Shown piece by piece: positions 1,269-22,973 of a stretch of 64,000 nt of DNA. Under the pieces are notes generated by a model that had not been told where the DNA came from, did no database searches, and saw only the letters and a list, made by a program, of their open reading frames with translations. Numbering within the stretch: the stretch's first letter is position 1; every line of letters starts with the position of its first letter. Origin of the DNA: Kiritimatiellia bacterium (GTDB lineage: Bacteria > Verrucomicrobiota > Kiritimatiellia > RFP12 > JAAYLN01); assembly GCA_045603485.1 (NCBI GenBank), contig JAZUMF010000105.1:1903-65902 (forward strand). The letters run 5' to 3'. Made by a program: the position numbers and the translations under genes.

Positions 1269-1688
1269 AAATAAACAAGTGTAATCGTGTGACACTTAAA
1301 GGTTGCTGCTGCAAAGGCGCAGAGATTTTGTGATACCGACTATTTCTTGTGTTAGTATAGGGAAGCTGGGCTATAGTGTCAAGTCTAATAGTCTGACACT
1401 TAAAGGTTGCACTTAAAGGTTGAAAATTTCTCCCGCGGAGAGCGCAGAGAAAATTGTGAGATTTTGTTCCGCACTGTAATCTCATGCGGTGGATGGTGGC
1501 GGACGGAGCAGCCACCGCAGAACTCTTAGAGAGAAACTGAAAAGGCCTGTCCCCTTAAAAGGTTTTCCCGCAAAAACGCTGAGGAATTGCAGCTTGGTTC
1601 TTAAAGGTTATTAGGTGGCAAGTTTGACAGTAAAGACAGTTTGCGAGTTTTACAGTTTTAATTGGTAAGGCCTGTCCCCAGAAAAGTT

Positions 1689-1723
1689 AGTAAATAGGTA
1701 ATAGTAAATAGGTAATAGGTAAT
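1689..1723. repeat. Heptad array (AGTAAAT/AGGTAAT) x5
   Basis: agtaaat aggtaat agtaaat aggtaat aggtaat. The paralogous array at 1947-1988 has 6 units. Confidence 0.85.
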
Positions 1724-1946
1724 AATGAAGAATGAATAATTTTTGTAGTTTTTAGGTTAAGTTTTTTGTGCCTTTTGCGAAGTACACGAAATTGGGAAGG
1801 CCTGTCTCCTTATAAAATTTTATCGCAGAGAATGCAGATAAATTGCAGCTTGGTTCTTAAAGGTTATTAGGTGGCAAGTTTGACAGTAAAGACAGTTTGC
1901 GAGTTTTACAGTTTTAAGTGGTAAGGCCTGTCCCCTTAGAAAAGTT

Positions 1947-1988
1947 AGTAAATAGGTAATAGGTAATAGGTAATAGGTAATAGGTAAT
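1947..1988. repeat. Heptad array AGTAAAT + (AGGTAAT)x5
   Basis: Perfect 7-nt periodicity, one more unit than the array at 1689-1723. Confidence 0.85.
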
Positions 1989-2202
1989 AATGAAGAATGA
2001 ATAATTTTTGTAGTTTTTAGGTTAAAACTGAAAAGGACTGTCCACTAAAAACTTTTACCGCAAAAAACGCAGAGATTTGTGATACCGACTATTTATTGTG
2101 TCAGTATAGTGAGGTTTTGTTGTTGTGTCAAGTGTAATAGTGTGACACTTAAAGGATGAGTCGTAGAATAGGGATAGTATAGGACTCGAAGGGAATATAC
2201 TA

Positions 2203-4608
2203 TCAGAGAGATGTTAGGGTGATGTTTTTTATGGTGAGATTGGATTTGCCATCGTAAATGATTGCAAATCGGAATGGTAGATTTGTTGTATGGGTAAAAT
2301 CGAGTGTTGCCGTTTCTAGGCCATTGGGGGAGGATTTGAATGGGGCATTGCCGTATTCGTTGCCTCCTGCGACGCCAACCTTTAGTTGGCAGCCATCGCC
2401 TCCTTGGGCTTTTACTTCAAGGCGGTATTTGCCTTGTGGAATTGGGAGATATGGCCCATGCAGCGCTTCTCCTTTGGGTGTGTGTGCTGTATTGAATTCA
2501 ACGCTTCCATCCTTGAGTACGCTTGTACCATTATGATACATATTTGCCGGGATTATCTCTATTGTTGAATTTGCTTTGAGGGGGTATTCTCCAGCGGAGA
2601 TCAGGGCATGGATTGGCGTTGATACTCCTTTTGGCAATGGTACAGATCCGCCTAGCGGCGGGTCGAATTGAGCCTCATGCCAGCCATTTTCTTTGTCTAG
2701 TATCAGATAGCGCATTCCTTGACGGGCTTGTGTCGGAGCTCGAAGCTTTAGGTTTATTTCGCCTTGCCGTGCCGTTTGAATTGAGCGTAAAACTTTACTG
2801 CTATCCCATTGGACTGATGCAGGATAATTTAGGTATGACAGCGGTTTGCTGTCGGCGTGAATGATATCTGTCTTTTTTTGCGGTAGGATTTCAAAGGCGG
2901 TAATCCCTTCACTTTGGGTTATTAGATTTAACCATGGGCTGGCGGCTAATTTTTTAAGTGCAACTCCTGCCGGAAATGGGGAGACTTTTGTGGGGTAGGG
3001 TTGTTCATGAAAGAGAATGTAGGTTACCCCAAACTTACGGAGTCTTGCTATTTGCTCATCTGTAAGTTCGCCTTCATTGAGGGAGGAGAGAGGTCCGAAC
3101 ACTTCGGGGTAGTAATCTTGCGGAACTGACGGTGAATAGCCGTTTATGAGGCGTAGGCGCGAGTTCATTGCGCCATGCTCGTAGACTGACGACCAGTGGG
3201 ATTCGCCGGGCCAAATTGGCAGGCAGATGGCTTTTGGGGATGCTGCCAGGGGTGCTTTTTCAGTTACAGCCTGATAGGCTTGGGCATAGTCTTTGATTTG
3301 GCATGCTCTTATGCGGAACCATGTCATATACTCAACTGTCATTACGAGTGCAATTATCGTTGCCGCATAGATAAAGATTTTTGACTTTACCGTGGCGTCA
3401 ATTGACTTTTTCCGTGCGAGTAATGAAGAGGTAATCGCGACGAGGGCTGCAATTACTGTTGGGAGGAGGCAATAGATTTTAGCGGCTTGTCTAATCATTG
3501 TGTACTTTGGAACGAGGCGTCGTGCGGCGCGTAGGGGTAGCGCGCACATTGGTCCGTCAACGCCTAATGCCAGAAGTATTACTCCGAGCGTCATGAGTCC
3601 AAAGAGGGTTAGTGCTAAATAGCGTTTCCATTCTTTTGTTAATTTGCCTAATGACGGGATAAATGCAATTGCAAGGAGAGCCAGCGCAAGAAATGAGATG
3701 CCTATGTAGTTGTGGCTGAATGCGCCTGAGAGATGTCGGCGTGAGAAGAGCCCTTGCTTTATCGGTGAGAAGAGGGCTATTTCCTGTAATGTGCGGCCAT
3801 TTGCCATATTCGAGGTTTCCAGATGGCTCGCCGAGAGTTGCGAGAGCGCGACGGCTGCAACTCCAAGGGCTGCGAGTGGGATAAGCGCTATGACGATTTT
3901 CTTTAACGGGGTTTCGTTTTGTTCTTTAAGTAGCCAAAAGCCTATCAGCGCAAATGGGGTGGCAAGCGCGGAAAAGTAAAAGACATGGAGGTCCGAGCAG
4001 TATGCGAAGAAGATGGATAGACCGGCAATTATGCCACCTTTTATTTTGCCGCTTCTTGCTATTTGATCCAGTCCGTAAAAGAGCCACGGGACGAGGCAAT
4101 AGGCAAAGCCTGTGGGGCTGCCGCTTATAATCGTTATCCAGCGGTATGGGAATGCCGAGAGCGCTACGGCTATCGCTGTTGAGATGATTTCGGAGTGTGT
4201 TAGCCGCCTGACTAGGAGATAAAGCCCTAGTAGGCACATCAGGTGTGAGAAAAGTGTTGCGAGATTCCAGCCGGCGGCATGGCCCCAAATTGGAGATGCC
4301 GCCGCGTAGACTAAGGAGAAGGGGATGTAGTAGGTGTCAAACTTGAACCTTTCCGCATCCCCCTTTGTATTGAATTCGTATACATTTGCAAAGGGGGGCG
4401 TTTTGCCCGCAATCATATCGCGGCATAGCCAAAAGTGATAAAGGAGCTGAATGTGGTCTCCAGGTACCATCGCCGTTATTGCAGGCTCGTCTGCGCCTCT
4501 CCACTCTGCGTATGGGATTGCCTTTGTGAAGTTAGCCGGTATGGGCCAAGTGATTGTCGCCCACACGAGTATGCCAAGAAGAGATGTTACGAGAAGACCT
4601 TTTTTCAT
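2203..4608 (-). CDS. Large polytopic membrane protein (YfhO/GT-C-like, tentative)
   Basis: 801 aa. The first ~430 aa contain about a dozen hydrophobic helices; the ~370-aa C-terminal domain looks soluble. The architecture resembles the YfhO family; no motif-level proof. Confidence 0.4.
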   Translation of the reverse strand: MKKGLLVTSLLGILVWATITWPIPANFTKAIPYAEWRGADEPAITAMVPGDHIQLLYHFWLCRDMIAGKTPPFANVYEFNTKGDAERFKFDTYYIPFSLVYAAASPIWGHAAGWNLATLFSHLMCLLGLYLLVRRLTHSEIISTAIAVALSAFPYRWITIISGSPTGFAYCLVPWLFYGLDQIARSGKIKGGIIAGLSIFFAYCSDLHVFYFSALATPFALIGFWLLKEQNETPLKKIVIALIPLAALGVAAVALSQLSASHLETSNMANGRTLQEIALFSPIKQGLFSRRHLSGAFSHNYIGISFLALALLAIAFIPSLGKLTKEWKRYLALTLFGLMTLGVILLALGVDGPMCALPLRAARRLVPKYTMIRQAAKIYCLLPTVIAALVAITSSLLARKKSIDATVKSKIFIYAATIIALVMTVEYMTWFRIRACQIKDYAQAYQAVTEKAPLAASPKAICLPIWPGESHWSSVYEHGAMNSRLRLINGYSPSVPQDYYPEVFGPLSSLNEGELTDEQIARLRKFGVTYILFHEQPYPTKVSPFPAGVALKKLAASPWLNLITQSEGITAFEILPQKKTDIIHADSKPLSYLNYPASVQWDSSKVLRSIQTARQGEINLKLRAPTQARQGMRYLILDKENGWHEAQFDPPLGGSVPLPKGVSTPIHALISAGEYPLKANSTIEIIPANMYHNGTSVLKDGSVEFNTAHTPKGEALHGPYLPIPQGKYRLEVKAQGGDGCQLKVGVAGGNEYGNAPFKSSPNGLETATLDFTHTTNLPFRFAIIYDGKSNLTIKNITLTSL

Positions 4609-18195: not shown

Positions 18196-19233
18196 ATGTG
18201 CGTTCTTTGTGGATATATCAGCAAAGAGAAAAATGTTGCGCCAAAACTCCTTGACTATGGTGAAAGCATAGAAGGGCTTTGGAGCGGTTTTTATACTGGC
18301 GTAGGAGTACTGGGCGACGATGGAGTTATCCGTCATCGTAAAACCACCGGCTGCTCATCAGTTTGGCGTGAGCGGTTTTCGACTGAAGATTTGCCCGGCA
18401 AAACGGGCTTTTTTCATAGCCGTACAAATAGCGGCGGCGACACAAGATATGCCCATCCATTTGTATCATGCGATGGTACCACAATGCTTGTCGGGCAAGG
18501 GCATGCAGGATGCTTTGCCAAATATAATGACAAGATTGTTGATATAGCCAATAATCTTCTTGATGAAGGGGTTGTCTTTTCAAGTGCAGACCCTGACCTT
18601 GAACGCAAAAAGTATCAAGTTCTGAAAGATGGCTCACAGGTTCATGTGTCGGATATTGTTACCGAGTATGCAGCCTCGCTATATCGAAAATGCGGAGATC
18701 CTTTGGAGGCTGTCCGTAAAACGGCAACCGATATTCTCGAAGAGGCGATTTCTCTCTTTATTTTCCGTGATAAGCCAGGACATATATATGTTTCAAATAT
18801 GAATGCACGCCTGGCAATCCGCCGCATTCCTGATGGAATCTTTATGACAACCAGCCTGTTGCTCTTTGATAAAGTCTATGGCGAGTCGTTGGAGATGCCG
18901 TCAAATGCTGTTGCAGATATTTCATTGGATTCTGCAACCTTTAAGCCGCTAGTTGATAACCTAACTGTGGGAGCATTAGGGAATCCTAAACAGTTGTATC
19001 AAGATGTCTATGACTTTATAAAGTCAAATGACGGAGTTTCTTTGCCGCAAATAATGGATTCCGTTGTTAAAAAGCATTGTGCCGCAGACGATGTAGAGCC
19101 ACTTTTCTTGCAAGGACTACCGCATCAAATTGTTGAGCAAATGTATGCCGAAGGCATAATCAATTATGAAACAAAAAAGGTCCCTGGGCCATCGTGTTGT
19201 AGCTATCCTGGAGCCAGAACATTGTTCTATTAA
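18196..19233 (+). CDS. Class II (Ntn) glutamine amidotransferase-domain protein
   Basis: The internal start MCVLCGY places the Cys nucleophile directly after Met, as in GATase-2/Ntn hydrolases. The ORF-track start at 18169 is 9 codons upstream. Confidence 0.5.
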   Translation: MCVLCGYISKEKNVAPKLLDYGESIEGLWSGFYTGVGVLGDDGVIRHRKTTGCSSVWRERFSTEDLPGKTGFFHSRTNSGGDTRYAHPFVSCDGTTMLVGQGHAGCFAKYNDKIVDIANNLLDEGVVFSSADPDLERKKYQVLKDGSQVHVSDIVTEYAASLYRKCGDPLEAVRKTATDILEEAISLFIFRDKPGHIYVSNMNARLAIRRIPDGIFMTTSLLLFDKVYGESLEMPSNAVADISLDSATFKPLVDNLTVGALGNPKQLYQDVYDFIKSNDGVSLPQIMDSVVKKHCAADDVEPLFLQGLPHQIVEQMYAEGIINYETKKVPGPSCCSYPGARTLFY

Positions 19234-19289
19234 AAAAAAATGACCTTTCGCGAAAGCAAAAGGTCATTCTTTTCTTTATGAAAGAAGGC

Positions 19290-19469
19290 AATTACTTGCC
19301 GACAATGATACCATCGCCGTATATAGCACTCTCGAGAGAGATACCCATAAAGGTGCCATAATAAACATTGTTAGCGTTAGGACCTTTAGTAGGGGTGCGG
19401 AATGACACGCATCCGGTAGAAACTACTGCAATAGCAATTGCAACGGCAGCGATTAGAATTTTGCTCATC
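19290..19469 (-). CDS. Small lipoprotein (59 aa, TRL-like?), below the ORF-track size cut-off
   Basis: Manual translation gives MSKILIAAVAIAIAVVSTGCVSFRTPTKGPNANNVYYGTFMGISLESAIYGDGIIVGK, a signal peptide plus lipobox-like STGC. Confidence 0.4.
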
Positions 19470-19738
19470 GTAATCTCCTTTTTATATATCAGGATACGAA
19501 ATCAGTTCCATTAAAGATTCGGAACACGCATTCCAATAGAAATCTTTATAAAACCAAATTCGTCTATAGTTTATATTTAGCATAAAGTTTTTGTCAAGTG
19601 ATAATTTCGCATTGTATTGCTACGAATAGCTTTTTTTGCTAATATGCCTTCTCAAGTGACAGGCCTTGCATAAACAATATTGCCAAATACCCCACTTTTT
19701 GGTAATATATTTACTTAAGGGACAGGCATCCAAAACAA

Positions 19739-20455
19739 CAAGGAAAACCAAGAGTCAAGAATATAGTCGAAAGCTACTACCATATAGTAAGCAGATGTAT
19801 CTTCAGTCAGTTTTTGCTGGGGGATACGGATAAAGACATGTTCGTCAAGATGATGCGTACAATAGCCTATTTCAGTGGAATAGATATACTCAACTATTGC
19901 GTGATGGACAACCACTTTCATCTCCTCGTTCATGTACCTGAGCCATCAAAGCCTACAGAAGCACTATTACTAAAACGCATATCCGCACTCTACGGTAGAC
20001 TCCACGCAGCTGACCTTAAGAGCCGCTGGTATGAACTAAAGAAGCAAAACCGACCAGATATTGTCGAAGAAGAGCAGGCGGCATTCATTCGCCGCATGGG
20101 AGATATAACACCATTTATGCAGTGCCTAAAGCAACGCTACTCAGCCTGGTACCGCGCAAGACACGACTACAAACAAGGCACAATGTGGGAAGGTCGTTTC
20201 CGCAGCACACTAGTAGAAGGCACCTCAGAAACCCTCTCCTCAATCTCAGCCTACATCGACCTAAATCCCGTCCGCGCAGGCATAGTAGACGACCCCAAAG
20301 ACTACAAATGGGCAGGCTTTGCCAATGCGCTGAAAGGCGATAGCAAATCAATGGAAGGCATAGCAAAGATGTATGACAAAACAGCTAGTGACACATCCTT
20401 TGCAGATTTGGCGAAAGAATATCGTCTAAAGAAGTCGGAGGCCAAGCGGTCTTAG
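19739..20455 (+). pseudogene. RAYT/IS200-like transposase, degenerate copy (ATG replaced by CAA; 3'-truncated at 20430)
   Basis: It aligns codon-for-codon with the intact copy, but the start is CAA GGA instead of ATG AGA. After ...EYRLK the frame runs into the inverted 3' flank of copy 2, giving KSEAKRS*. Confidence 0.6.
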
Positions 20456-20485
20456 GAAGACAACATTCACACACAACTCCTTGGC

Positions 20486-21343
20486 TCACAGAACGACATG
20501 GCTACGATCCGACTTTGAGCCTATGATGGCGCCGTGTGTGAAGTGGCGTATTTTGCAGCGAAGTATTACCGATAACGGTAACTCGCCTTTTTCATCTATT
20601 ACTTCTTGTACCTTTTCTGGCTCTATTGCATCGGAGCCGCGTACATAGAGTTTTAGACGATATTCTTTTGCCAAATCTGCAAAGGATGTGTCTTTAGCTG
20701 TTTTGTCATACATCTTTGCTATGCCTTCCATTGATTTGCTATCGCCTTTCAGCGCATTGGCAAAGCCTGCCCATTTGTAGTCTTTGGGGTCATCTACTAT
20801 GCCTGCGCGTACGGGATTTAGGTCGATGTAGGCTGAGATTGAGGAGAGTGTTTCTGAGGTGCCTTCTACTAGGGTGCTACGGAAGCGCCCTTCCCACATT
20901 GTACCTTGCTTGTAGTCGTGTCTTGCGCGGTACCAGGCTGAGTAGCGTTGCTTTAGGCACTGCATAAATGGTGTTATATCTCCCATGCGGCGAATGAATG
21001 CGGCCTGTTCTTCTTCGACAATATCGGGGCGATTTTGCTTCTTTAGCTCATACCAGCGGCTTTTAAGGTCAGCTGCGTGGAGTCTTCCATAGAGTGCCGA
21101 TATGCGTTTTAGTAATAGTGCCTCTGTGGGCTTTGATGGCTCTGGTACATGAACGAGGAGATGGAAGTGGTTATCCATTACGCAATAGTTGAGTATATCT
21201 ATTCCGCTGAAATATGCTATTGTACGCATCATCTTGACGAACATCTCTTTATCTGTATCCCCCAGCAAAAACTGACTGAAGATACATCTGCTTACTATAT
21301 GGTAGTAGCTTTCGCCTGCGTTCTTGACTCTTGGTTTTCTCAT
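20486..21343 (-). CDS. IS200/IS605-like Y1 (HUH) transposase, RAYT-like, with C-terminal extension
   Basis: 285 aa with HUH motif HFHLLVH at ~aa 60 and Tyr-containing YSAWYRARHDY at ~aa 135, then a ~135-aa C-terminal extension. Confidence 0.7.
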   Translation of the reverse strand: MRKPRVKNAGESYYHIVSRCIFSQFLLGDTDKEMFVKMMRTIAYFSGIDILNYCVMDNHFHLLVHVPEPSKPTEALLLKRISALYGRLHAADLKSRWYELKKQNRPDIVEEEQAAFIRRMGDITPFMQCLKQRYSAWYRARHDYKQGTMWEGRFRSTLVEGTSETLSSISAYIDLNPVRAGIVDDPKDYKWAGFANALKGDSKSMEGIAKMYDKTAKDTSFADLAKEYRLKLYVRGSDAIEPEKVQEVIDEKGELPLSVILRCKIRHFTHGAIIGSKSDRSHVVL

Positions 21344-21560
21344 TGTTGTCTCCTTGTGGTGAATGTGGCAGACTTTGGGTCTGTCCCTCGGTCAAATATA
21401 TTACCAAAAAAGAAGATGCTTGGCAATAATTTTGTATAGCACTTTCTCGGATGCCTGTCCCCTAGGCAGATATATTACCAAAAAGTGGGATATTTGGCAA
21501 TATTGTTTATATAAGGCCTGTCCCTCAGTAAAGATGTTAGCAAAAAAGGCGGAGCGAATT
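21344..21560. repeat. Three tandem ~60-bp REP-like units upstream of the intact RAYT gene
   Basis: (G)TCTGTCCCTCGG-TCAAATATATTACCAAAAAAGAAGATGCTTGGCAATAATTTTGTAT is followed by GATGCCTGTCCCCTAGGCAGATATATTACCAAAAAGTGGGATATTTGGCAATATTGTTTAT and then AAGGCCTGTCCCTCAGTAAAGATGTTAGCAAAAAAGGCGGAGCGAATTGGCAACATTAATGTG. Confidence 0.75.
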
Positions 21561-21620
21561 GGCAACATTAATGTGGTTTTGATATAATACTCACCATCTT
21601 GACTTTTTGAAAGGACTGCT

Positions 21621-22973
21621 ATGAAACTCAATCTTAACTTTGACAATGTTATTGGAAAAATCAAGCCTATGCATGCCGTCGGGCAGCCTCCCTTTACCGG
21701 GGGATTCCAGTCTTTGAATTTTAAACCGATACAGATATTGAAGGATGCCCATGTCCCATATTCTAGGCTTCACGATGTTGGCGGTGCCTTTGGAGGAAAT
21801 CGTTTCGTTGACATACCAAATATCTTTAGGGATTTTGATGCCGATGAAAACGACCCTGCATCTTATGATTTTGCATTTACCGATGTCCTTATCAAGGCGA
21901 TGATGGAATATGATGTACCGCCATATTTCAGATTGGGCGTTACTATTGAAAATCAAAGCTTTGTTAGGGCTTACCGTATCCACCCTCCAAAGGATTATGG
22001 CAAGTGGGCAAGAATTTGCGAGCACATTGTCCGCCACTATAATGAGGGATGGGCTGACGGCTTCCACTTTGGAATTAAGTATTGGGAGATTTGGAATGAG
22101 CCTGAGAATCGTGAAATTCCAAAATTAAATCAATTGTGGACTGGTACCGCCGAGCAGTATTATGAGCTTTACGATGTTGCCGCCAAGCATTTGAAGAATT
22201 GCTTTGGCGACAAGATTAAGGTCGGCGGATATGGCGCTTGCGGTTTCTATGGCATATTCGGCGACCCTGAGAAGTATGGCCTTAATGTCGAGAGGAGAAC
22301 CGAGGAGCGTTACAATAGCGCCAAGGAGGACTATCGTATAAACTTCTTCTTGGGCTTCATGGAATATCTAAAGGCGCACAACACTCCGATCGACTTTTTC
22401 TCATGGCATACATACGGCACAATTGATGTTATCTTGGTTGAGGCTGATTTTGTTGATAACACCTTGAATAAATATGGTTTTGGGAATATTGAGACACATC
22501 TTAACGAGTGGAACCTATCCCACGACCGCAATAAGAATAAGGGCACATCATTTGCGTCATCAAATGTAATGGCGACTATGATCGGTATGCAGTACAAGAA
22601 GACCGACATGCTGATGTATTATGATTCACGATTCGCCGCAATCAGCGCTTACGCTGGCTTGTACGATGTTACAACGCTTGAGCCCTCCTGCGTTTATTAT
22701 TCACTTAAAGCCTTTGGCGAGTTATATACCTTGGAAAACCAGGTTGAATGCGCTCTTGGCAAGGATGGGGTATTCGCCGTTGCCGCTAAAAACGGCGACA
22801 AGGAGATGGTAATCCTATCAAATCTTGAGGATGACATCGTCATTGAAACCGAGCTTTCCCAAGATTTCAGCGCATACTTGATTGATAAGGACAACTTTAT
22901 CGTCAAGACCGATTTAAATCCTAAGGAATTCACTCTTAGGAAGAATGATGTCATTGTCTTGAAGAACTACTAA
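21621..22973 (+). CDS. Clan GH-A glycoside hydrolase (GH39/GH30-like)
   Basis: 450 aa with a (beta/alpha)8-type pattern and YWEIWNEPEN (the acid/base Glu in an NEP motif). Confidence 0.55.
   Translation: MKLNLNFDNVIGKIKPMHAVGQPPFTGGFQSLNFKPIQILKDAHVPYSRLHDVGGAFGGNRFVDIPNIFRDFDADENDPASYDFAFTDVLIKAMMEYDVPPYFRLGVTIENQSFVRAYRIHPPKDYGKWARICEHIVRHYNEGWADGFHFGIKYWEIWNEPENREIPKLNQLWTGTAEQYYELYDVAAKHLKNCFGDKIKVGGYGACGFYGIFGDPEKYGLNVERRTEERYNSAKEDYRINFFLGFMEYLKAHNTPIDFFSWHTYGTIDVILVEADFVDNTLNKYGFGNIETHLNEWNLSHDRNKNKGTSFASSNVMATMIGMQYKKTDMLMYYDSRFAAISAYAGLYDVTTLEPSCVYYSLKAFGELYTLENQVECALGKDGVFAVAAKNGDKEMVILSNLEDDIVIETELSQDFSAYLIDKDNFIVKTDLNPKEFTLRKNDVIVLKNY

Follow-up and report, generated by a model that had tools for sequence, protein, structure and literature searches.

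A tail-to-tail pair of diverged, 3′-truncated TIRYT-type transposase genes in a Kiritimatiellia-like bacterium

Two 3′-truncated transposase genes lie tail to tail

A 64,000-nucleotide stretch of DNA assigned to a Kiritimatiellia bacterium (contig JAZUMF010000105.1, hereafter called the window) carries two old, diverged RAYT-like tyrosine transposase elements of the TIRYT type, which are arranged tail to tail and are both truncated at the 3′ end. The pair is placed between a lipoprotein gene (left) and a GH39 gene (right) on a Kiritimatiellia-like chromosome. Ordinary mobile-element debris is, on balance, the likelier description of this locus, rather than a fresh palindromic duplication. The central part of the locus comprises three features:

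19743–20430, plus strand: copy 1, a TIRYT pseudogene in which codons 3 to about 231 survive (tblastn with residues 3–231 of the relative P0001: 99%)
20431–20513, no strand assigned: orphan filler of 83 nt, edged by the inverted 8-mers AAGTCGGA (20432–20439) and TCCGACTT (20508–20515)
20514–21343, minus strand: copy 2, a TIRYT gene covering codons 1–277 of about 328, with Shine–Dalgarno sequence and ATG intact and with the HUH residues (H59/H61) and Y172 kept

Alignment of the two arms (19743–20430 on the plus strand and 20652–21339 on the minus strand) yields an inverted repeat of 688 nt with 36 mismatches (94.8% identity) and a spacing of 221 nt. This bears out the tail-to-tail geometry, the roughly 95% identity and the spacing that an earlier sequence-only reading had described, and also its placement of the end of copy 1 homology at 20430, 55 nt from the copy 2 stop codon. 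A second inverted repeat of 77 nt (19655–19731 and 21449–21525, 90%) spans the upstream non-coding units. That reading had taken the sequence past 20430 to be simply the 3′ end of copy 2, but positions 20431–20513 are filler DNA without a detectable relative.

Copy 2 had been called an intact gene. A 285-amino-acid open reading frame (ORF) is indeed present at 20486–21343 on the minus strand, and the annotated ORF continues to 20486. However, homology to full-length relatives ends at 20514 after ...GAIIGSK (codon 277), and the last eight codons of the ORF (SDRSHVVL*) have no counterpart in those relatives. Homologues are about 320–330 amino acids long in 3,508 of 3,508 cases, and P0001, which is 99% identical, has 328 amino acids; copy 2 is without the conserved C-terminal 51. 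It retains 138 nt (codons 232–277) that are absent from copy 1.

Copy 1 is without the 3′ third of the gene, as its proposed truncation implied, with homology ending at about codon 231. Its frame is open and its start codon is absent. The earlier observation that CAA GGA stands where copy 2 has ATG AGA is correct, although the lesion is a deletion and not a substitution: 13–15 nt are missing relative to the single-unit 5′ UTRs of loci L001, L024 and L025, and the missing segment (GAGTTAATCATGA in L001, 13 nt) comprises the end of the Shine–Dalgarno sequence and the ATG. Because both copies are 3′-truncated, neither gene should be annotated as an intact transposase.

The genes encode HUH/Y1 enzymes

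Both Pfam matches and fold place the protein in the IS200-like or RAYT-like HUH/Y1 transposase superfamily, the level at which its original label is right. The Pfam family Y1_Tnp (PF01797) is matched with an E-value of 1.3e-14 and is found in both arms, with 54.8 bits for copy 2 and 45.4 bits for copy 1 against a gathering cut-off of 23. Across 25 family members the HUH motif (H59-F-H61) and Y172 do not vary, and both window copies have them. The segment YSAWYRARHDY, quoted in the earlier reading, is not the tyrosine motif. The invariant tyrosine of catalytic type is Y172 within AYIDLNPVRAG, which a profile alignment matches with the catalytic tyrosine region of ISDra2 TnpA and of Escherichia coli TnpA-REP (4er8). 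The YIDLNP segment is invariant or nearly so, and it contains the Y---NP tyrosine motif (class 2 of Quentin et al.).

A single-sequence search of the PDB was too weak for structural assignment, and profile and fold searches were needed. An AlphaFold model (pLDDT 88, pTM 0.90) has the RRM-like HUH fold and best matches E. coli TnpA-REP 4er8, followed by IS200/IS605 TnpA proteins; each of the 30 best PDB matches is a TnpA-REP or an IS200/IS605 TnpA, with probabilities of 0.99–1.00. Scores against two NCBIfam models fall below the equivalog cut-offs, at 53.4 bits for REP_Tyr_transpos (NF047646; cut-off 80) and 29.3 bits for transpos_IS200 (cut-off 55). The C-terminal extension is itself conserved, and a search for an HTH-like domain (Bac_DnaA_C, HTH_23 or HTH_28) gave no Pfam match at E ≤ 0.01.

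Promoter-bearing units carry terminal inverted repeat cores

Non-coding units precede both copies, and related terminal inverted repeat (TIR) cores are found elsewhere in the window:

19617–19666, plus strand: unit C′ of copy 1, degenerate (TTGCTA...TAATAT...AGTGACAGGCC), aligning with unit C of copy 2 and with L001/L012
19680–19729, plus strand: unit B′ of copy 1, matching unit B of copy 2 at 90% identity in the opposite orientation
21378–21433, minus strand: unit A of copy 2, with TIR core CTGTCCC (plus strand, 21381–21387) and promoter TTGCCA-N17-TAATAT (21426–21398)
21449–21507, minus strand: unit B of copy 2, with TIR core GGGGACAGGC (21453–21461, minus strand) and promoter (21500–21472)
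21515–21560, minus strand: unit C of copy 2, with TIR core AGGGACAGGCC at 21516–21525
1534–2074, minus strand: five TIR-like cores in the same orientation (GGGGACAGGCCTT, minus strand; two degenerate) in a repeat-rich intergenic region

In unit B′, a sigma70-like extended −10 promoter (TTGCCA-N17-TAATAT, 19680–19708) is followed by the TIR core AAGGGACAGGC (GGGACAG at 19719–19725). L012, L026 and L028 also have unit A, and copy 1, L001, L024 and L025 lack it. The outer edge of unit C coincides in part with the −35 hexamer of the GH39 promoter. The motif GGGACAGKC is found six times in the window, where 0.56 occurrences are expected. Unit B (21454–21461, minus strand) and the dispersed copies at 1545, 1670 and 1926 contain GGGGACAG, and most other TIR copies are AGGGACAG, with three G's.

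The full layout of such an element, or TIRtron, consists of a TIRYT gene of about 328 codons preceded by one to three units of about 60–70 nt, each with a sigma70-like promoter and the TIR core (A/G)GGGACAG(G/A)C, and followed by inverted cores about 220 nt past the stop codon. In relatives down to 33% amino acid identity, GGGACAG lies 33–48 nt upstream of the ATG and CTGTCCC 49–290 nt downstream. Both are found in L012, L024, L025, L010, L011, L015/16 and L005, and variant TIRs are found in L003/L017 and L018. The core follows the promoter −10 box by 9–13 nt in several relatives, L015/L016 not being among these. Neither window copy retains its native downstream TIRs, which have been deleted.

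REP sequences, which occur abundantly in a genome, are imperfect palindromes that form short hairpins with a GT[AG]G foot. We rejected an assignment of the flanking units to this type: the TIR cores do not fold, and pairing is weak and confined to the promoter part (ATATTGCCAAA...TTTGGTAATAT). Right-end and dispersed TIR copies are unfolded (z of +0.3 to +1.2), and the GGGACAG core is part of no consistent hairpin. An Rfam search of 19200–21800 returned no match above threshold, and the papers retrieved with the literal motif GGGACAG plus ‘transposase’ were all unrelated.

The outer flanks of the pair recur elsewhere. On the left, the upstream units are colinear beside the same lipoprotein gene in the independent assembly L002 (97.3%), and on the right the GH39-adjacent position is common to L001, L026, L027 and L028 (96–99%). 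Judged by these alignments, both outer junctions are real.

The arms probably diverged under purifying selection

The 36 differing sites of the arms correspond to 30 synonymous and 4 non-synonymous codon changes, with a dS of 0.24 and a dN/dS (omega) of 0.046. Given this dS and a dN/dS of about 0.05, the arms diverged as working genes and not as recent in-place copies. Thus, the earlier suggestion of a recent palindromic amplification or template-switch duplication misfits a divergence of 36 sites that are mostly synonymous. On the branch leading to copy 1 itself, 1 of 13 changes is non-synonymous, and there is no non-synonymous excess. Copy 1 is 96.4% identical to L001, 96.2% to L024 and 94.8% to copy 2, and identities among seven copies are star-like, at 93–97%.

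The premise that RAYTs occur as single copies, on which the pair had been called unusual, is inapplicable to this subfamily: the element is found at full length, with 92–96% identity, in at least four other genomic contexts. A multi-copy or mobile element is further suggested by the short-read contigs, every one of which breaks inside it. RAYT group 1, which is TIRYT-like, is the most IS-like group, and 6.3% of its members have a duplicate of at least 95% identity on the same replicon (PMC5581495). Among related contigs there is none with an intact convergent pair, nor with any pair, and we therefore infer, rather than observe, an ancestral state of two full copies. Scans of GTDB genomes and JGI metagenomes that used the protein as query likewise found no second pair, the closest genome being a Kiritimatiellae MAG with 57% identity.

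Between samples, identity is no higher for copies at the ‘same’ locus than for those at different loci, which makes gene conversion among copies plausible. Such conversion could have introduced synonymous-biased differences into a younger in-place duplication.

Filler DNA forms the central joint

The 83-nt filler provides the stops of both ORFs, namely TAG at 20453–20455 for copy 1 and TCA at 20486–20488, the reverse complement of TGA, for copy 2. No match to it was found anywhere in the window, among 28 related loci or in canonical 3′ regions. The 8-nt inverted microhomology at the joint has a probability of about 0.005 in a 26 × 26-nt neighbourhood, and the hairpin of the filler is weak (z = −1.8). 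A template switch, which does not fit as a recent duplication, may nonetheless have a place here, in that such a switch or a hairpin-mediated event may have made the central joint through this microhomology.

Both junctions read ...AAAG(AAG)TCGGA, like the canonical ...CTCAAAAAGTCGCC near codon 320, which prompted the idea that the filler is a diverged remnant of the 3′ tail of the gene itself. We rejected this candidate: local alignments of the filler, in both orientations, with the 3′ regions of seven relatives were no better than those of shuffled sequences.

Origin of the locus

The explanation that we regard as best, and hold with moderate confidence, is that the locus is the decayed remnant of two convergent TIRtron copies that subsequently underwent a central deletion. 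It starts from the observed anatomy, truncations, divergence pattern, conserved TIR architecture and multi-context distribution, from which we infer the order and mechanism of the deletion. Purifying selection would have acted on both convergent paralogues as they diverged. The centre of the quasi-palindrome would later have been deleted, probably by hairpin or cruciform processing or by replication slippage, which are known to act on long inverted repeats. The 3′ end of each gene, each 3′ region and the inner TIRs would have been lost in this way, leaving the 83-nt filler joined through the 8-nt inverted microhomology. A single deletion does not account for this filler. Copy 1 would afterwards have lost the 13 nt with its ribosome-binding site and ATG. 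The enzyme itself would nick single-stranded DNA at the TIR core through its HUH motif and Y172, and may mobilise TIR-bounded DNA, including the dispersed TIR cluster.

An in-place inverted duplication seems unlikely to us. On this reading, there was a single GH39-adjacent element, whose 3′ part would have given way to its own 5′ part copied in reverse orientation, either by fold-back priming or by a template switch during replication at a short inverted repeat. The arms would then have diverged or been overwritten by gene conversion from other genomic copies, and the star-like identities do suggest exchange among copies. Such an event would also agree with the microhomology that edges the filler exactly at the two breakpoints, with the 5′-type units at both composite ‘ends’ and with an intact pair being seen nowhere else. 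However, it sits poorly with arms that are 5.2% diverged at an omega of 0.046, with a start-less copy that lacks neutral decay, with the asymmetry about the filler created by the additional 138 nt of copy 2, and with unequal unit content (A+B+C versus B′+C′). Moreover, the left units stand beside the lipoprotein gene in a second sample (97%), which argues against a private recent event. We consider it decidedly improbable that the assembly is a chimera produced by the inverted misjoining of two different loci, or of strain variants of a single multi-copy element. Zero independent assemblies span the central joint (20400–20520), the short-read contigs of close strains each break inside the element (in all contigs examined), and the exact proteins of copy 2, of GH39 and of a 354-amino-acid neighbour have no record in public assemblies. 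Yet technical fold-back or palindrome artefacts have identical arms, whereas these differ at 36 sites, and a de Bruijn misjoin would fall inside shared sequence in the same orientation and would not generate a unique filler of 83 nt. Each outer junction has independent support, and both truncated ORFs end cleanly within the filler.

We attach very little probability to a retained functional locus, whether as the source of a hairpin or antisense RNA that damps other TIRYT copies or as a TIR-bounded, non-autonomous composite mobilised in trans. Promoter-like sites face inward on both sides (19680–19708, plus strand; 21426–21398 and 21500–21472, minus strand) and could transcribe the 688 bp of 95%-complementary arms, with no terminator-like site in the filler. 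If so, the product could be long double-stranded RNA that damps the other TIRYT copies of the genome in the manner of a transposon-derived silencing locus. The outer TIR cores have the relative orientation of a canonical element, and the Shine–Dalgarno sequence, ATG and catalytic core of copy 2 are intact. Against this, the pair is conserved at no other locus, and the C-terminal truncation and start-codon loss look like decay.

Implications

The main yield of this analysis is a correction of annotation, in that the pair probably represents a decayed remnant and does not constitute evidence of ongoing palindromic amplification. The 688-bp inverted repeat could give rise to inversion or instability, and short-read assemblies are known to break at it. 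The locus also documents the little-studied TIRYT/TIRtron class in gut or rumen Kiritimatiellia-like bacteria, where it appears to be multi-copy. To our knowledge, no enzymology exists for the TIRYT subfamily. The TIR core, whose GGGACAG is kept across relatives as distant as 33% protein identity, offers a concrete candidate binding or cleavage site for these enzymes.

Comparison with known systems

Long inverted repeats and palindromes undergo central deletions in E. coli, through SbcCD-dependent palindrome instability and replication slippage. The locus resembles such systems in its two roughly 95% complementary arms, asymmetric centre, inverted microhomology and lost inner ends, and differs from them in that the joint also contains filler DNA.

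With the IS200/IS605 TnpA proteins (IS608, ISDra2), the element protein shares the HUH/Y1 fold, the catalytic residues and PF01797. Its motif, in contrast, is Y---NP and not Y---Q, its transpos_IS200 score is below cut-off, and the element ends are inverted repeats instead of asymmetric subterminal hairpins. The RAYT or TnpA-REP proteins (E. coli YafM/RayT, 4er8; REPtron) provide the best structural match and have the same Y---NP and HUH motifs, and in both cases inverted copies of a short repeat, which the genome also has elsewhere, lie on either side of the gene. However, the element protein is twice as long and scores below the REP_Tyr_transpos cut-off, the repeats on either side of its gene are no GTAG-footed palindromic hairpins, and the presence of the element in several contexts means that it is not a single-copy domesticated gene.

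By its sequence features, the element matches the published TIRYT/TIRtron class (Di Nocera et al. 2013, PMC3733652), in which a Y1 gene has terminal inverted repeats instead of REP hairpins. Going by published descriptions, it probably belongs to TnpA-Y1 subclass 2.1 or 2.3 (PMC6006769) and RAYT group 1 (PMC5581495). Subclass 2.1 is reported to have a Bac_DnaA_C/HTH domain, and subclass 2.3 has a median length of 325 amino acids with no HTH reported (Quentin et al. 2018, PMC6006769); the element may belong to subclass 2.3. In contrast to subclass 2.1, no Bac_DnaA_C/HTH Pfam domain was detected in the C-terminal extension of the element protein. The host, a Kiritimatiellia-like PVC bacterium, also sets it apart, as do upstream TIRs embedded in tandem promoter-bearing units, and the window locus is a truncated convergent pair and not a canonical TIRtron. 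In other respects the likeness is close. The element protein of about 328 amino acids is much longer than RAYTs and IS200 TnpA, has additional sequence inserted after the HUH strand and ends in a C-terminal extension that is conserved, and the gene is bracketed by TIRs at roughly fixed distances. The core (GGGGACAG/AGGGACAG) fits GGGGWSAS, the majority type of the published TIR consensus (PMC3733652, PMC6006769), and TIR-like repeats are also dispersed and clustered. The family is more IS-like than classical RAYTs.

Geometry of the inverted gene pair

Comparison of the window with itself reveals a 688-nt inverted repeat whose arms (19743-20430 and 20652-21339, spacing 221 nt) are 95% complementary (94.8% identity, 36 mismatches), together with an outer inverted repeat of 77 nt (19655-19731 and 21449-21525, 90%) that covers the non-coding DNA upstream of each gene copy. 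Pfam Y1_Tnp is matched in both arms (1.3e-14 in copy 2, 1.1e-11 in copy 1). The tail-to-tail arrangement proposed by the sequence-only reading is thereby confirmed as real, and it lies far beyond chance.

19743-20430, plus strand: copy 1, TIRYT (RAYT-like HUH/Y1 transposase) pseudogene
20431-20513: filler
20514-21343, minus strand: copy 2, TIRYT gene, ORF running on to 20486

At the left junction, the lipoprotein gene, unit C′ and the start of unit B′ are colinear at 97.3% with L002, a contig of an independent run. At the right junction, the beginning of GH39, units C, B and A and the gene 5′ end are backed by four contigs at 96-99%; none of the independent contigs compared spans the central joint. 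That the arrangement is an assembly chimera is very unlikely, since fold-back or adapter artefacts would yield identical arms and a k-mer misjoin would not produce a unique filler.

Directly left of the pair lies a 58-aa ORF (19292-19468, minus strand) whose signal peptide (MSKILIAAVAIAIAVVSTGC...) is of the lipoprotein type; it belongs to no Pfam family, and one independent Logan assembly encodes an identical protein. Illumina/Nextera adapter sequence (AGATCGGAAGAGC; CTGTCTCTTATACACATCT) is present in the related loci L001 (1459-1473) and L012 (1-50 and 2510-2535), and an adapter-derived peptide, ...IGRASCRERV, forms the C terminus of the predicted protein P0130. These ends of public metagenome contigs, and P0130, are untrimmed-read artefacts of the source assemblies, not biology.

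Neither copy is intact

The 285-aa ORF of copy 2 (20486-21343, minus strand), previously taken for an intact protein, is truncated. As a query it finds 3,508 homologues, nearly all 320-330 aa long and each covering only 97% of it. The closest, P0001 (99% identical, 328 aa), goes on after ...HGAIIGSK with DFVNEEFEKHRSLFNPKRKTGARGIGLCKEWNGLRLCSVRELKKSPFTFKA, where the copy 2 ORF ends in SDRSHVVL and a stop. DNA homology to full-length relatives (L001, L012, L024 and L025) stops at 20514, and the 51 C-terminal residues missing include F279, F291, R295, R317 and L319, which are nearly invariant in the family alignment.

Homology of copy 1 is limited to codon 3 through codon ~231 and ends at 20430. 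L001, L024 and L025 have a single unit in their 5′ UTRs, and against them copy 1 is short of 13-15 nt that include the ATG and the last part of the Shine-Dalgarno sequence (L001 start region, ACAACAAG[GAGTTAATCATGA]GAAAACC); what had looked like CAA replacing ATG is therefore a small deletion.

Nothing else in the window matches the 83-nt filler (20431-20513), nor does any of 28 related loci or the canonical 3′ region of any of seven relatives. The filler is bounded by an inverted 8-mer (AAGTCGGA ... TCCGACTT), a match that arises in ~0.5% of random trials (26 x 26-nt neighbourhood).

Terminal units and conserved core

Each gene copy is preceded by ~60-70-nt units: three for copy 2 (A, B and C) and two for copy 1 (B′ and C′, the latter degenerate). 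Units B′, B and A carry a sigma70-like extended -10 promoter (TTGCCA-N17-TAATAT with TG before the -10) and, 9-11 nt beyond it, the core (A/G)GGGACAG(G/A)C; in several relatives GGGACAG lies 9-13 nt past the -10 box. In full-length relatives the core recurs in inverted orientation downstream of the gene, and every locus tabulated has an upstream core 33-48 nt before the ATG. Loci L003/L017 and L018 have variant inverted repeats at corresponding positions.

Downstream inverted cores in relatives
L012: +219/+261
L024, L025: about +210
L010: +211/+264/+357
L011: +221/+273
L015/L016: +49
L005 (Verrucomicrobia relative, only 33% identical): +246/+287

The cores do not lie in consistent hairpins, and neither the right-end copies nor the dispersed ones fold, so these repeats are not REP sequences. 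In units B′, A and B (19676-19710, 21398-21430 and 21470-21504, respectively) the promoter part is an imperfect 11-bp palindrome, ATATTGCCAAA-N10-TTTGGTAATAT, spanning the -35 and -10, with weak folding z-scores (-0.7 to -2.1); it could be an operator or a single-stranded DNA hairpin. The top sigma70-like promoter of the region (21559-21588, TTGGCA-N18-TATAAT, 11/12 matches, TG-extended) points towards the GH39 gene. The outer edge of unit C holds its -35 hexamer, so GH39 expression may depend in part on the border of the element.

About 40 nt past the stop codon, relatives conserve a hairpin (CACCCCGCATAGGGGG, CACCCCGCATTGGGGC, CTCTCCCGCAATAGGGAAG, CGCCCCGAATGGGGGAG; L001 1340-1375, L011 1075-1105, L010 6025-6055, L013 and L014) whose stem changes look compensatory. 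L012, L024 and L025 lack it and have a different 3′ region in common; it is also absent from the window, in which both gene copies have lost their 3′ ends.

A repeat-rich intergenic region has a cluster of five same-orientation cores (AAGGCCTGTCCCC; 1534-2074), and GGGACAGKC occurs six times in the window versus 0.56 expected.

1545, 1670, 1926: exact cores
1798, 2036: degenerate cores

This region (1270-2200) is bordered on one side by a BspA-type LRR gene (87-1268) and on the other by a minus-strand gene for an 801-aa membrane protein (2203-4608), and tblastn detected no transposase remnant in it. It also holds a ~255-nt higher-order tandem repeat (1575-1679 / 1831-1935, 95%), a 30-nt repeat with GTGACACTTAAAGG (1276, 1380 and 2129) and a microsatellite-like TAGGTAA/GGTAATA run (1688-1720 and 1953-1990) that differs in copy number between the two higher-order units.

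Distribution and origin of the pair

The element, comprising units, gene, ~220-nt 3′ region and inverted TIR (terminal inverted repeat), is present, with 92-96% nucleotide identity, in at least four contexts other than that of copy 1: adjoining the GH39 gene (copy 2, L001 and L026-L028), in L012, in L024, and in L025 directly after an rpoN-like gene. All copies complete on their own contig in these contexts are full-length. Members of the 90% cluster lie on 1.2-1.9-kb contigs, and all three long contigs with the GH39 gene end inside the element; such short contigs and breaks are the signature of a multi-copy repeat. A second, inverted copy had seemed unusual for single-copy RAYTs. A second copy as such is not exceptional: in RAYT group 1, reported as the most IS-like group, 6.3% of the members share their replicon with a duplicate at least 95% identical (PMC5581495).

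Between the arms 34 codons differ, 30 synonymously and 4 non-synonymously (dS 0.24, dN 0.011, omega 0.046; Nei-Gojobori). Had an in-place duplication been followed by divergence of the arms, a dead copy drifting since then would have gained mostly non-synonymous changes, whereas only 1 of the 13 private substitutions of copy 1, which has no start codon, alters an amino acid (polarized with L001). Copy 1 also shares no more identity with copy 2 (94.8%) than with copies from other samples (L001, 96.4%; L024, 96.2%). The seven copies compared are roughly equidistant (93-97%) in a star-like pattern, which is compatible with gene conversion among them, and for this reason we retain in-place duplication as an unlikely explanation. 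Judged by these comparisons, the arms appear to be old paralogues.

Most likely, two TIRtron copies (TIRYT gene plus TIR-bearing units) ended up convergent in this intergenic gap, which would have created a ~1.3-kb quasi-palindrome. A central deletion would then have taken the 3′ ends of both genes together with their 3′ regions and the inner TIRs, leaving the microhomology-bounded filler, and the start of copy 1 would have been lost afterwards. An ancestral intact convergent pair was not observed among related contigs.

Relationship to known transposase classes

In a 25-member family alignment, H59 is invariant and H61 nearly so in NHFH (the HUH motif), and invariant Y172 sits in AYIDLNPVRAG. 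The YSAWYRARHDY stretch pointed out earlier is not the tyrosine motif. The family profile matches ISDra2 TnpA across the HUH half, with Y172 on the catalytic-tyrosine helix, and E. coli TnpA-REP (4er8) at residues 147-196. An AlphaFold model of P0001 (pLDDT 88, pTM 0.90) has 4er8, a REP-associated tyrosine transposase, as its best PDB match, followed by all IS200/IS605 TnpA structures. Scores fall below the cut-offs of the NCBIfam equivalogs REP_Tyr_transpos (53 versus 80) and transpos_IS200 (29 versus 55). The protein belongs to the HUH/Y1 superfamily and to neither classical family (RAYT, IS200). For the TIRYT as well as for a housekeeping carboxyltransferase, the nearest named relatives are Kiritimatiellae or Lentisphaerae MAGs; the apparent host is a Kiritimatiellia-like PVC bacterium of gut or rumen samples.

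The locus is real but ordinary: two decayed, convergent copies from an element class that is known though poorly studied. The most useful result obtained along the way is the conserved GGGACAG terminal-repeat core, a candidate site, open to testing, for recognition by TIRYT enzymes.

The element and its flanks match the published TIRYT/'TIRtron' class of RAYT-like genes with TIRs on both sides, most of which share GGGGWSAS (PMC3733652), a consensus that GGGGACAG fits. No DnaA_C/HTH domain was detected in the TIRYT protein. Later work equates the class for the most part with TnpA-Y1 subclass 2.1, which corresponds to RAYT group 1 (PMC6006769); in length and insertion pattern, the studied protein is also similar to subclass 2.3 (median length 325 aa).
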